From Eledone cirrhosa (lineage: Eukaryota), in contig OZ024741.1 in assembly GCA_964016885.1 (NCBI GenBank), forward strand, positions 284,766,001 through 284,830,000: a DNA stretch of 64,000 bases. The letters run 5' to 3'. The translations under genes and the position numbers were made by a program. Positions 14,745 to 62,492 of this stretch are shown in pieces; position 1 is the first letter of the stretch; every line of letters starts with the position of its first letter. The notes under the pieces were generated by a model. The model made no database searches and was not told where the DNA came from. It worked only from the letters and a program-made list of their open reading frames with translations.

Positions 14745-15069
14745 TTAGAATTGGAGCTCTGAAATAGCAATATATATATATGGATGTATATATAATGTAT
14801 TTTGCAATACACTTTATGCTTAATTAAAAGCATTTTGAAGACCGTAAGCTATTGTTTTAAAGTAGTGACAATTTCACTCACTTTGATCTCAGCAAACAGG
14901 GGAGATAAGCCGACAAGACTTGTTTCGCTTTGGTTGAAGCTTATCAAGGCCAACTACCCCACCTGTTTGCTGAGATCATTTGATGTTATATTCTTATAGA
15001 AATCTAGTAAATAATCAGGAGCTGATTATGCAGAGCGGTTGTTGGTCAGGCAGAAATTAAAAATTAGAA
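14745..15069 (-). mobile_element. Solitary monomer of the 320-bp HHR (retrozyme-like) family; HHR at 14908-14951
   Basis: Colinear with the 17970-18828 units; minus strand ggcc TTGATAA gctt caacca aagc GAAA caagtcttg TC ggct, enclosed by TCAGCAAACAGG/CCTGTTTGCTGA. Confidence 0.85.
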
Positions 15070-15269
15070 TATATATACATATATACACACACACACATAC
15101 ATACAAGTATCTATGTATGTATAATATTAAACAACAGCATCTATGTATGGACATATGTATAAGTATGTGTTGCCATAGGAGTGGATGATCGAAGCAGGAG
15201 TAGGGGTGGTGAGTGTGTAGGGAGTGGTTTACCTTGTGCTCGGTGTGGCGGGGCTACTGTCCCTATAGA

Positions 15270-16480
15270 TTGAGGTTGTTATTGTCCATATAGCTTGAGG
15301 AAGGTCCCGGCCCTTAAGTGTCTACATGTACCGAAGAAGTCAGTCCTGCGGTTTATTAGGCTGCTTCCACCGCTGAGTATCTCGAAGGTCTCGCTCAGAC
15401 ATAGTTTGCAGATGCCAGATTCCCCTCTATCAGGTGGTACTTTCCTGATTTTGGACCAAGCCAGAGAGTGCGGGGTCCTGTCCAGCTTGAGCTTCCAGAT
15501 CAATTCGGAAAGAGACGTACTTTTCCTTTTGTCCTCCCTATTAAAGGAATGGCGATGGTTATACCATCGGTCTTTGAAGCTCGTTGATGTGGCTCCTATA
15601 TAAAGGTGTTCAGAGTTTGGGGTTTTTACGCTACATCCGTATATTAAGTTCTTCCTTAGGCATTCATTACTAAGGGGCATAAAGCAGTTGCAGGAGGTGG
15701 TCGACCCCCGAGTGCCTAATGTGGGGTTCCCGTTGCGTCTTATAGGACACGGTGGGGGTCCCTGGGTCTGTTTGGGTTCCCAAGGTGGGTACTGGGTCCA
15801 CCCTTCCTTCCCTCTACATGACTCTGCTGGGTGCTAATATTGCCAGCTTCTGGTTGTGTGTAGTTTTTAAGTCTACCCCTATTGATCCTAGGTATATACT
15901 GGGCTACATTTCGCGTGGTAGAATACGAGAGCTTCACAGTGTGGTATCTATGGTCCCTCAGGATGCATTTATCTAGTGCTCTAAAGAATGATCGGGATAG
16001 GCTGTTCTCTAGGGCCAATGAGTAAGGTGGGTTGTACCACGTGATTTTTCTGCGACTATTCCTATGTGGGTGGGTCGAGCGTGCTGTGGGCCGTTGGAGA
16101 GTTGATGGGTTGCTAGTGGTTCCCGCATTGTTGCTTTCTCTTTGGGCGTTATGTGTTTTGCTAACTTCCCAGCTCGTACCTGTGGGGTGATTGTTGCCCA
16201 CGCTGGGAGTTCTGCAATGGGATAAACCTCCATCCGTCCCGCTTCGTGTCTTGCGGTTGGGGGCGTCGGACCCGGCGTGGTTAGTATCAACCCTGGGACC
16301 GCTACTCGTACTGGGTTTCCTCCCATAGCTAGGCGCACGCGTCCCTTTCGCTAATGTGGTGGTGTCGGGTTTATGGTGTTTAGTGGTTTCCACTCTGCAT
16401 GTACTGCTAGCCCCCCCCCCCCCCGCTCGGCTCACGAATACCGTGAGTCGGGGGGTCCAATGTGCTATCACTATCATGGC
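15270..16480 (-). mobile_element. Penelope-like element 3' fragment (third lineage), GIY-YIG endonuclease
   Basis: RRKITWYNPPYS...TVKLSYS (15740..16477) and CLRKNLIYGC...LYIGATSTSFKDRWYNHRHSF...TSLSELIWKLK...CKLCLSE...CRH (15279..15680); same motif set as 57500-59317. Confidence 0.85.
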
Positions 16481-16678
16481 GCCTCGGATTATAAGATATA
16501 TATTTGACTTAATTATTTTACATTACTCCGGAGTAAACACCAACCTGTGTACTTCGGCGAGTGCTCCAATCTATATATATATGTGTGTGTGTGTGTGTGT
16601 GTGTCTGGTGGTAGCTAAGAAGCTTCCATAGGCGGTATGCCGTTTGAGCACTCTATGTTCTTACAGAGCAGAGTGTGA

Positions 16679-17019
16679 TATAATATAAAACGAAAAATCA
16701 GTGATGCATCTGAACTCAATTTATTGTGTGTTACAATTGTTTCGCCGGCAGACAGCTCGAGACACGATCATTGTGTGGATCTGTTTGATTCTGGATCTGC
16801 AGGTTCGTCGGACACTTCTAATAACTTCGGATCAAATTTTCTCACTGGGGTGTTAGCGTAAAAAAACATCCTCTTCGCTCGTCCTGCTATTGGCTGTTGT
16901 TTTTCTACGTCGTCATGAATTTTGACCAACAGGTACTGTGAAACTGACCATCAGCTGTCCTTTTTCCTGCCACACTTCAATGAATCACTGCTGGGTTTGG
17001 TAGTTCACACGTCCAGGCG
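16679..17019 (-). repeat. Left arm of a 340-bp inverted repeat; HHR-like motif at 16728-16815
   Basis: Reverse complement of 18928-19269, about 8 differences by manual count. Confidence 0.9.
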
Positions 17020-17704
17020 CTCACTCACACACACATATATATATACACACACACACTCTCACACACACAGACGCACACAATCATATAAATAACAACATCC
17101 GTACGCATATACTCCCCCTATACATACGCACCCAAAGAGAACCCATAAAACTATAGATATATGCGTCCACATACGCCTGCCTACATGTCCATGTACATCA
17201 ACTCACACACACACACACGCGCGCGCGCGCGCACACGCACACAGGTGCGCACACATGCATACGCGTATATCTACTCGTATACACAAACACGTACAGACAT
17301 ATACATAGACACGCACACGCACATGTGTCCATATATACAGGCACAAAAACAGACTCGCTCGCAAACACACATATATATGTATATATATATATATAAATAT
17401 ATATATATATATGTATATGTGTATGTGTATGGATGTATGTTTCTGGTTATATTGTTTATATATGTGCATGTTTACTACAAGATACATCCTTTAATGTATG
17501 ACGTTATATGTATATTTTAGTATATTGTAGGTTTTTTTTTATATATGTGTATGTATGTGTGTGTATGTACATATGTGTGTGTGTGTGTGTATGTATATAT
17601 ATATATATATATATATATATATATTATTAGGGTAAACATTGATGAAATTCAATTCAAGCGCTCAACGTACTTTTTCCACATAGGAGTGACGGAGTAAATA
17701 TCGA

Positions 17705-60212: not shown

Positions 60213-61629
60213 TTTTCAGTTCATTATTCTGCAAGCCAGAAAAAGAAGTTAGAATGTAGATGAACTCGAATTGTTCTCGTTGTCCTTCCGCTTCGCTAGG
60301 CTCAGCCTCGCTTGCATTGGCGTCGACCAAGTGTTCTCAGCGTCCTTCTGCTGGATATAACCGATGTGTTTTGCGGCTAAAGATGATTAATTTTAAACCT
60401 AATTTGCTTGCACTAGTTGTATCGCACTAGACACAGGCCTCCTATTAATGCTATATGTAAATTGTATGTGTGCCAAAATATTTGATATTTCTACTTTCAA
60501 TAAAGAATCTCGTAATACAAAAAATATTCATATATATTGTTTTGTAAGAGTTAAATAATTCGTAACAGTTTGTTACTGGTTTCTAATTTGACATTTTTAT
60601 GACAGTTATACTTTTCATTGTCCAGAAAAGTGCCTATCAGGAATTTATGCTTTTAAATATTTAATATATAGGTGGGCTGTGGAAAATGTTACCATGTGAA
60701 AGTGGGAGATGACGCAAAATCGGTGCGATTTTTTGGGGGTGTTATGTAATTTGTTTCCGAAATATTGGTGGTGTGTGTAATTGCGTAGTTTTTTGCCGTT
60801 TATGTTAATGGCTGTATAGGGTTGTATCTTTTTGTTGGATTTGCTTTTGTAGTGGATGTGGATTTGTTTCTGTTTGAGATGTTGTTGTCGTTTGTTGTTG
60901 TGTTTATGATTGTGGTTGTGGGGTTGATAGTGTTGTTGGTAGTGGTGCTAGTGCTGGTGCTGGTGACATTGGTGTAGGTGATGTCAATAGTTGCCTCCAG
61001 GCTTTAGATTTTTTTCCCTTCTCTTTTTTTTATGGGGAAGTCAGAGAGTTTCTAATTCTTTTTCGTTATTGTGGGAGACGTTTTTCCAAGAAGAAATGCC
61101 AGAGAAAATGATCGGCAACATTTTGTACATGGCTTCTATAATAACGTTAAAGACGAACTCTAAAGAGGCAAATTCAGCCACAAACATTGCACATAAAGTC
61201 ATTTCGAGCATCTAAATATCCAGGTAAAGTAATATCATGTAGACCCTTACGCAAACCCCTCTTTACTTTTTCATGCTCTACACAAGTTTTTCAAATTTCT
61301 ATTTTCCTCCAGCATTTAAAGCAATGTTTTTCCAGTTATCTGCTCTTATTTTTGACTTCAGCAAAGCTATTTTGATGTAGTCTTTATACCAGAGTTTTGG
61401 TTTATGCCTTTGCCGTTTGCCTTTGACTACTTCACCGTACAGTAACAGAATTCGATGATCTGACATTCTTAAAACATGGCCGTTCCAACGTAATCTATAT
61501 TGGAGTATGGGGCCATTGCTATTACATTTTTCAATCCCATTCGACAGGCAAGTTGTTTAACATAAGAAGTTTTTCTTTCCAAAACAAAGGTATTCACTTC
61601 TTTAATAATTTTTGTATGCAGATGATTGG

Positions 61630-61940
61630 TATCTTGTTTCTCACTCTGAGTGTGATGAATTCTTTTTCGGAGGCATGCAGCGCATTGGATTTGACAATCA
61701 GTTTCACATGTCTCAACCAGCTCTAGACAGGGATTTACACTGAGACAAGCATGTATGGCAAAACAGTGAAAGTTCTGGATAAATTTGTGGATTTAGGCAG
61801 CACAGTTAATATGACAAACACCCTTCATACAGAAATCTCTTTATAACTAAAGAAGGCAAGGTAGTTCTTATGCTAAATAAAATGGGTGTCTCTCGTGTCG
61901 ACGTGGGATTTCCATTGATACAAAGTTAAAGGACAGAACA
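61630..61940 (+). mobile_element. Degraded RTE-type RT fragment
   Basis: ACSALDLTIS...KTVKVLDKFVDLGSTV...EISL*LKKAR resembles the RTE thumb motif F.YLGS...EI..RI.KA. Confidence 0.65.
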
Positions 61941-62006
61941 TGTGTAACAATATATATATATATATATATATATATATATATATATATATATATATATATA
62001 TATATA

Positions 62007-62129
62007 TTATAAGAACAGATTAAAGTTTAAGCAAAGAATCGGTGCTTTCACCCTTAACGGGGTCTTCTGAAGATCTCGTTAAGGGTGAAAGTGGCGGTTC
62101 TTTGCTTAAACTTTAATCTGTTCTTATAA
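62007..62129. repeat. Fold-back hairpin centred on an HHR-like CTGAAGA box
   Basis: Arms ATAAGAACAGATTAAAGTTTAAGCAAAGAA...TTTCACCCTTAACG and its complement; the arm start recurs at ~10945-10970. Confidence 0.75.
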
Positions 62130-62204
62130 TAAATATTTGCTCTATTATATATATATATAATCCTTCGGATTTTAGTTTTCACATGTATTATTACTATATA
62201 TATA

Positions 62205-62492
62205 TTAGGATTAGTGCTCTGAAATAGCGATGTATACATGAATGTATGTATAGTATATTTGGCAATATACCGTATGTTTAATTAAAAACATTTTGAAGTT
62301 CATACGCTATCGGCGAAAGAAGGGAGAGAAGCTAACAGTCTGTTTCACGCTGTTGGCGATCATCAGAACCACACACCCCGCTTTCGTCGAAAATTATAGA
62401 AGCTGGATTCTTATAGAATTTCAGTAATAATTAGGAGCTGATTATACAGAGCGATTATACATTCATGTATACATCGCTATTTCAGAGCACCA
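62205..62492 (-). mobile_element. Diverged member of the 320-bp family with a canonical HHR core (62331-62369) and a short terminal inversion
   Basis: Shares GTGCTCTGAAATAGCGAT and GATTCTTATAGAATT...GCTGATTATACAGAGC; minus strand gtt CTGATGA t cgc caaca gcg t GAAA cagactg TT agc; 62457-62490 inverts 62213-62246. Confidence 0.8.

Follow-up and report, generated by a model that had tools for sequence, protein, structure and literature searches.

Here, we describe a family of dispersed, non-coding units of 316-320 bp in the genome of Eledone cirrhosa, each bearing a type I hammerhead ribozyme motif, that is very probably a non-long terminal repeat (non-LTR) retrozyme mobilised in trans by the enzymes of Penelope-like elements (PLEs). 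Three members of the family, loci A, B and C, lie on the minus strand of a 64,000-nucleotide stretch of contig OZ024741.1 (assembly GCA_964016885.1, positions 284,766,001 to 284,830,000 of the forward strand), which is referred to throughout as the window. Metazoan non-LTR retrozymes are defined by Cervera and de la Pena (2020; PMC7229834), and the retrozyme class, families of covarying hammerheads and the U3-A8 variant of the core are all published; the family is a new member of that class. Because the class is already known, the covariation reported below is a confirmation and not a surprise. We found no description of the family itself in the open literature on cephalopod retrozymes or octopus hammerheads, a search that left out subscription journals, repeat databases and supplements.

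The family is abundant. A 25-nt motif from the part of the unit beyond the ribozyme gives 4,591 exact matches in the 3.0 Gb genome and none for its control, and a pattern describing the ribozyme core has 9,297 matches as opposed to 15 for the reversed control, with about 21 of the first 100 core matches listed belonging to another family, an unrelated PLE repeat. The unit has a GC content of 33-34% and non-LTR anatomy, and it is repeated in tandem in runs of up to 26 units, the longest being an array of the youngest subfamily (L251, G000:C1:293635237-293643468). No reading frame of 120 codons was found over loci A, B and C. The ribozyme consists of the core N3UGANN8A, GAAA and UH with a matched pair between positions 3 and 8, surrounded by helices I, II and III with helix I open, which is the layout of a type I hammerhead. 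A structural scan of the window gave 12 matches, five of which are the ribozymes of loci A, B and C, and none in 10 shuffles; Rfam matches to microRNAs were rejected as microsatellites. Contigs of four sequencing runs, one repeat-rich and three with low-depth traces, were not used as evidence of expression. In order to compare copies, 210 loci (171 distinct stretches) were sampled, yielding 266 ribozyme-spanning units in 154 stretches. The alignment took one unit from each stretch and, after removal of one duplicate, comprises the 153 insertions to which the pair counts below refer.

The way in which the units are inserted points to PLE enzymes. In 149 clusters, we saw 84 inverted, 37 tandem and 28 single arrangements. 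The 3' ends lie in (TA)n in 188 of 233 cases and fall at two fixed positions, one short and one tailed, and the 5' ends are variable; in 59 of the 84 inverted clusters a short end is paired with a tailed one. Truncation, inversion, a tail on one side and (TA)n together make up the PLE insertion signature, in keeping with the anatomy of PLEs described by Craig et al. (PMC8557442) and with the two start sites of reverse transcriptase (RT) reported in vitro by Frangieh et al. (PMC11167929). The targets are themselves (TA)n, which bears on whether a target-site duplication can be seen. Among the 44 5' ends outside TA, four abut PLE fragments where about 0.6 would be expected, an excess that we noticed before counting it, and one abuts a short interspersed element (SINE). 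The joins with PLE fragments at L002, L109 and L185 are sense-to-sense. Junctions at L072 and L216 were considered as chimeras and rejected, as they look like later PLE insertions. One candidate source of enzyme, the PLE family hosting locus A, retains an intact frame of 894 residues with RWK and CxCX5C motifs and fits the Hydra clade.

Since this anatomy is the same as that of PLEs, the units could conceivably be orphan pseudo-LTRs (pLTRs), that is, 5'-truncated copies of an autonomous PLE whose coding body was not sampled. The PLE pLTRs of this genome do bear hammerheads, and frog retrozymes are described as deriving from pLTRs (bioRxiv 10.64898/2026.07.22.740005). However, upstream of a full unit we find the 3' part of another unit and never a shared open reading frame (90 loci; 149 clusters), an array of 26 units exists, and the PLE repeats compared resemble the unit in (TA)n and nowhere else; one apparent similarity of the 3' end to a PLE repeat (z 3-3.9) was traced to the (TA)n target. 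A frame for RT and GIY-YIG endonuclease between pLTRs was not found in the family, so it does not qualify as an autonomous PLE. We therefore regard the orphan explanation as highly unlikely, and descent of the unit from a pLTR is possible.

The preliminary description of the window proposed three subfamilies, and the wider sample resolves about nine, separated by compensatory steps, some of them through G·U intermediates. Stem II alone runs through CGC/GCG, ATAC/GTAT, GTAC/GTAC, GCAC/GTGC, GCAT/ATGC and GCTT/AAGC, with G·U intermediates at L022, L188, L103 and L123. The three loci hold too few events for significance, and the sample of 153 suffices: non-modal pair states found in at least 8 insertions are Watson-Crick, G·U or broken in 13, 2 and 1 cases, respectively, compared with 5, 16 and 62 for rarer states (p=3e-7), which bears out the earlier proposal that helix changes are compensatory beyond chance. 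Where wobbles recur, they are G·U when read on the ribozyme strand and never A·C. When given 15 hand-picked representatives, RNAalifold recovered the fold unaided, with double changes at 15 of 31 pairs; 96% of cells are paired, versus 40-50% in slid controls. Among the nine subfamilies, 177 of the 180 pair states are canonical, with subfamily counts as the only bound on how many compensatory events were independent. Columns differ between them at 0 of 9 core positions, 23 of 36 stem positions and 56 of 224 positions outside. Taken together, there is good support for selection having acted, in the source elements, on both the RNA fold and the hammerhead core.

Stem turnover between subfamilies also exceeds that of the rest of the unit (23/36 vs 56/224, p=8e-6), which may mean that the flanks are under sequence constraint or that helix III palindromes are diversifying. 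One subfamily (L123, L159, L166, L179, L272-L280) has an extra A between C11.1 and G12.

Covariation extends to the tertiary pair between positions 3 and 8, which is U-A in 93 insertions, C-G in 53 and another combination in 7, being matched in 146 of 153. Genome-wide, the core matches include 4,729 with U-A, 86 with U·G and 94 with C·A, and an unrelated PLE family is among the other 4,388. When the tree is built with the ribozyme columns left out, the 3-8 label needs two changes, both forced by supported branches. The second U3-A8 group makes up 19 of the first 100 listed among 867 C-type matches. Median nearest-neighbour distances are 0.047-0.086 in the C3-G8 subfamilies, 0.004-0.039 in the main U3-A8 series and 0.079 in the second U3-A8 group. 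Because the distances are larger in the C3-G8 subfamilies, the main switch on this unrooted tree likely ran from C3-G8 to U3-A8; the direction given initially is probably reversed, with the C3-G8 subfamilies older than the main U3-A8 series. A few copies with U3·G8 share other letters at 4-5 loci, and three resemble the second U3-A8 group; these copies are possibly mobile intermediates.

In order to separate selection on templates from decay after insertion, we used the 54 insertions that contain two or more units, distinguishing changes private to one unit from those shared by all units. Private changes fall on the core and the flanks at similar rates (37/1,514 vs 581/27,164, or 2.4% vs 2.1%), and pairing is kept in 12 of 16 shared variants compared with 28 of 87 private ones (p=0.002). 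Inserted copies therefore decay neutrally, and templates are filtered for pairing. RNA editing was examined as a source of the shared hairpin changes, given A>G at 10/1,195 versus T>C at 2/1,298 (p=0.018), and is not claimed: sites recur, and retention of G·U predicts the same bias. The units of one insertion are not closer together than to the nearest other insertion (9/54), so a circular template gains no support from them.

Several observations weigh against the reading of the family as a PLE-mobilised retrozyme with a hammerhead under selection. Rfam scores for HH9 are 24.4-25.5 bits (the best, 25.5, at locus B unit 2) against a gathering threshold of 52, and the Rfam scan gave no hammerhead match at locus C. 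In older subfamilies the pair at 10.1-11.1, usually G-C, is A-U or gives way to U·U or A·A; over the 153 insertions G-C accounts for 88, U·U for 29, A-U for 25 and A·A for 3. These replacements, together with the small U3·G8 sublineage, indicate that weak ribozymes may still move. Taken alone, the invariance of the core relative to the positions outside it (0/9 vs 56/224) is not significant (p=0.12), and template-level variants of the core (1/580 vs 32/10,490) are too few for a test. Pair counts share ancestry, so that the p-values quoted for them overstate independence, and 90 of the loci were picked by similarity and about 65 by the core pattern. With regard to PLEs, the junction at L163 is antisense and ambiguous, the junctions with PLE fragments could instead be later insertions with deletion, and none of the 4-5 families compared, out of the many more in the genome, yielded an autonomous PLE whose terminal repeat is homologous to the unit.

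Some of the same facts could be accommodated if the fold were selected for a role other than cleavage, such as binding by PLE proteins or RNA stability, or if pairing were restored by template-switch repair of hairpins, the ribozyme itself being inactive or dispensable. Frangieh et al. (PMC11167929) report that hammerhead mutants left PLE insertion in vitro unreduced, and Li et al. (bioRxiv 10.64898/2026.07.22.740005) that eight of nine frog retrozyme dimers failed to cleave. In addition, whole subfamilies of the present family are mismatched at 10.1-11.1, and the hairpin changes faster than the flanks among templates (41/4,626 vs 32/10,580). Nevertheless, hairpin repair cannot yield covariation of the tertiary 3-8 pair, which is seen twice. 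The unpaired catalytic letters, identical across subfamilies, and the strand on which the recurrent wobbles are G·U also count against this explanation. Both forms of this explanation therefore appear very unlikely. Of the original proposal that selection acted on RNA catalysis, what stands is selection on the fold and hammerhead core in source elements; catalysis is read from the core letters, from which the unit is likely self-cleaving as RNA.

Spread as a passive satellite or minisatellite through DNA recombination would suit the tandem arrays of up to 26 units. However, the family occupies thousands of dispersed sites with fixed 3' ends, variable 5' ends and (TA)n targets, and the site of locus A is empty in all 17 PLE paralogs listed (L219-L235), which are continuous on both sides. 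The satellite explanation, already dismissed in the preliminary description, is thus largely refuted by the anatomy of the clusters and has almost no probability left, and DNA-level growth of long arrays may continue. A viroid-like RNA copied from RNA to RNA with occasional integration, as proposed in the literature for variable hammerheads (PMC4209133; PMC7229834) and as the rapid hairpin turnover might suggest, is likewise extremely improbable, given that an opposite-strand hammerhead was not found at the three loci and that the ladder of subfamilies and the insertion ends fit retrotransposition. The earlier claim that the family replicates through RNA consequently holds for retrotransposition and not for RNA-to-RNA copying.

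The three loci of the window illustrate the range of the family. Locus A (14745..15069) is a single unit of the youngest subfamily (U3-A8) that lies in (TA)n within the 3' untranslated region of a Hydra-clade PLE, of which a GIY-YIG endonuclease fragment, itself outside the family, remains at 15279..15833 on the minus strand (PF01541, E=0.005). The notion that the unit is a pLTR of this adjoining PLE was rejected because the paralogs have an empty site. The hammerhead (14908..14951) comprises stem I (14951-14948/14911-14908, GGCC/GGCT), core (14947-14941, TTGATAA), stem-loop II (14940-14927, with stem GCTT/AAGC), GAAA (14926-14923) and helix III reaching to 14913 (ACAAG-T-CTTGT). The cut is predicted after C17 at 14912, and an outer helix spanning 14885..14977 extends stem I with arms at 14977-14962 and 14900-14885. 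Locus B (17968..18829) consists of 2.7 head-to-tail units of 320 bp belonging to subfamily B1 (U3-A8), truncated on the 5' side at 18829 and with its 3' end, of the short kind, lying in (AT)n at 17968. Three ribozymes follow one another with a period of 320, at 18107..18151 (unit 1), 18427..18471 (unit 2) and 18747..18791 (unit 3), with stem I AGCT/AGCT, core TTGATAA, stem II GTAC/GTAC and stem III ACAGAGCTCTGT.

Locus C (62205..62460) belongs to an older subfamily (C3-G8, with U·U at 10.1-11.1) and has a tailed 3' end in (TA)n. An inverted fragment of the 3' end of a unit marks its 5' junction (62457..62494, plus strand), a PLE-type inversion. Its hammerhead (62330..62370) has the core CTGATGA, stem II CGC/GCG, stem III ACAG-A-CTGT and the cleavage triplet GUU. 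The copy is decayed, as about 35 nt after the outer helix are missing relative to its relatives, and the hairpin z-score is -0.85 compared with -4.4 in the relative L048. Homology with loci A and B is clear to both sides of the ribozyme, the two matches to locus A having 80% identity across 113 nt and 86% across 51 nt, so the grouping of the three loci into one family with differing, paired helices holds, as do the letters reported for them when read on the minus strand. Pairing at every position does not, as 10.1-11.1 breaks: the stem II given for locus C leaves out this pair, which is U·U in that copy. Its stem I, gtt/agc, had been taken for a subfamily state and is a copy-specific change from the GGCT/AGCT of its relatives, one wobble away from locus B, and the letters given for its outer helix are those of the plus strand, the ribozyme strand carrying an A·C mismatch.

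We propose a scheme modelled on that of PMC7229834, in which transcript, cleavage, circle and PLE RT follow one another. Read-through or tandem transcripts would be cut by one ribozyme after another, perhaps in dimers formed via the palindromic helix III, and the long outer helix would hold the ends together for ligation into a circle by a host ligase. A PLE RT acting in trans would then initiate at either of two fixed sites, separated by about 20-25 nt, and run through the cleavage junction, giving partial tandems, as RT and endonuclease copied the unit into (TA)n tracts. New subfamilies would be founded only by templates that keep the fold. As a circle, the unit is predicted to fold far better than shuffles (z -5.5 and -5.7).

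Tentatively, this scheme might include an off switch, whereby positions 2.1-5 pair with 15.5-15.2 of helix III and block the active fold in the monomer circle, the blocking pairs having coevolved with the 3-8 pair, and PLE enzymes of more than one clade might copy the circle and switch templates with their own RNA. The predicted pairing of G5 with C15.2 has a probability above 0.8 in 12 of the 15 representatives, 0.5 in one and near zero in A2 and E2, and the active fold lies 0-8 kcal/mol above the blocked one in a calculation that excludes tertiary stabilisation. Across 136 insertions, positions 3 and 15.4 are C-G in 49, U·G in 44, U-A in 37, another state in 6 and C·A in none. Cognate blocking pairings beat permuted ones (p=0.002, ancestry uncorrected). 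The chance of four blocking pairs is 7-12%, and of the 11 further types of hammerhead that these loci contain, none reaches four. We hold the switch to be a possibility short of even odds because independent events are few and it was discovered post hoc.

Other features of the sampled DNA concern PLEs and neighbouring repeats. Near full-length and intact Hydra-clade PLEs with hammerheads of their own occur at L158 (2575-7500), L248 (1413-4094), L249 and L250, and an endonuclease query returned 55,283 first-look candidates, although the Hydra clade has been described from few families. The flanks of L001-L251 contain about eleven other types of hammerhead motif, indicating a genome rich in PLE-type ribozymes. 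Within the window, hammerhead-like motifs of other families are located at 6817(-), 36739(-), 36811(+), 19642(-), 20813(+), 63977(-) and 56200(-); a truncated PLE (19453-21002) contains those at 19642 and 20813 in its inverted arms, and the core of the motif at 63977 is of the U3-A8 type. Other repeat families are represented beside loci B and C by inverted arms and hairpin elements (16678-17019 and 18928-19269; 17690-17960; 62005-62130). A SINE-like repeat has six copies (13082, 22235, 27227, 45352, 59342 and 63307), and fragments of long interspersed elements span 308-3296 and 28431-33119.

The closest known systems are the metazoan retrozymes of PMC7229834, which include a mussel example in Mollusca and are likewise described as non-coding, tandemly repeated units of some 300 bp with a type I hammerhead, with GC below 45%, thousands of copies and coexisting PLEs; this likeness is one of description and not of sequence comparison. 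Unlike the retrozymes as described there, the present family displays a full PLE insertion signature and a series of subfamilies. Its monomer is also predicted to be self-blocked, whereas in that account the ribozyme is predicted to be free in the majority of metazoan circles and would need to be blocked by other means. If true, the off switch would answer how metazoan retrozyme circles avoid self-cleavage, left open in that paper. Cervera and de la Pena (2014; PMC4209133) reported PLE hammerheads with U3-A8 covariation in families full of compensatory changes. The family shares with these pLTR hammerheads the alternation of U3-A8 and C3-G8, compensatory families and a palindromic helix III. 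In that account the hammerheads are mostly minimal motifs on elements with RT and endonuclease frames, whereas the present ones have a helix III of 4-6 bp and a stem II of 4 bp and are frameless.

As in PLE insertions (PMC8557442, PMC11167929), we find 5' truncation, partial tandems, an inverted 5' copy, a tail at one end and (TA)n or AT-rich targets; unlike PLEs, the units encode no protein, and the tail is about 20-25 nt rather than 30-40. Retrozymes were linked to PLEs in a 2026 preprint (Li et al., bioRxiv 10.64898/2026.07.22.740005), and the family resembles the vertebrate retrozymes described there in being non-autonomous, likely PLE-dependent and arranged from monomers to multimers. The evidence presented by Li et al. 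is co-occurrence together with pLTR homology. Here, such homology was not found in the PLE repeats compared, and the evidence is insertion ends and junctions, of which the ends link a retrozyme with PLE enzymes in a more direct way than co-occurrence can. The family thereby offers a test system: its natural ribozyme variants form a dated series, with wobble intermediates and two switches of the 3-8 pair, and the same genome supplies a neutral control.

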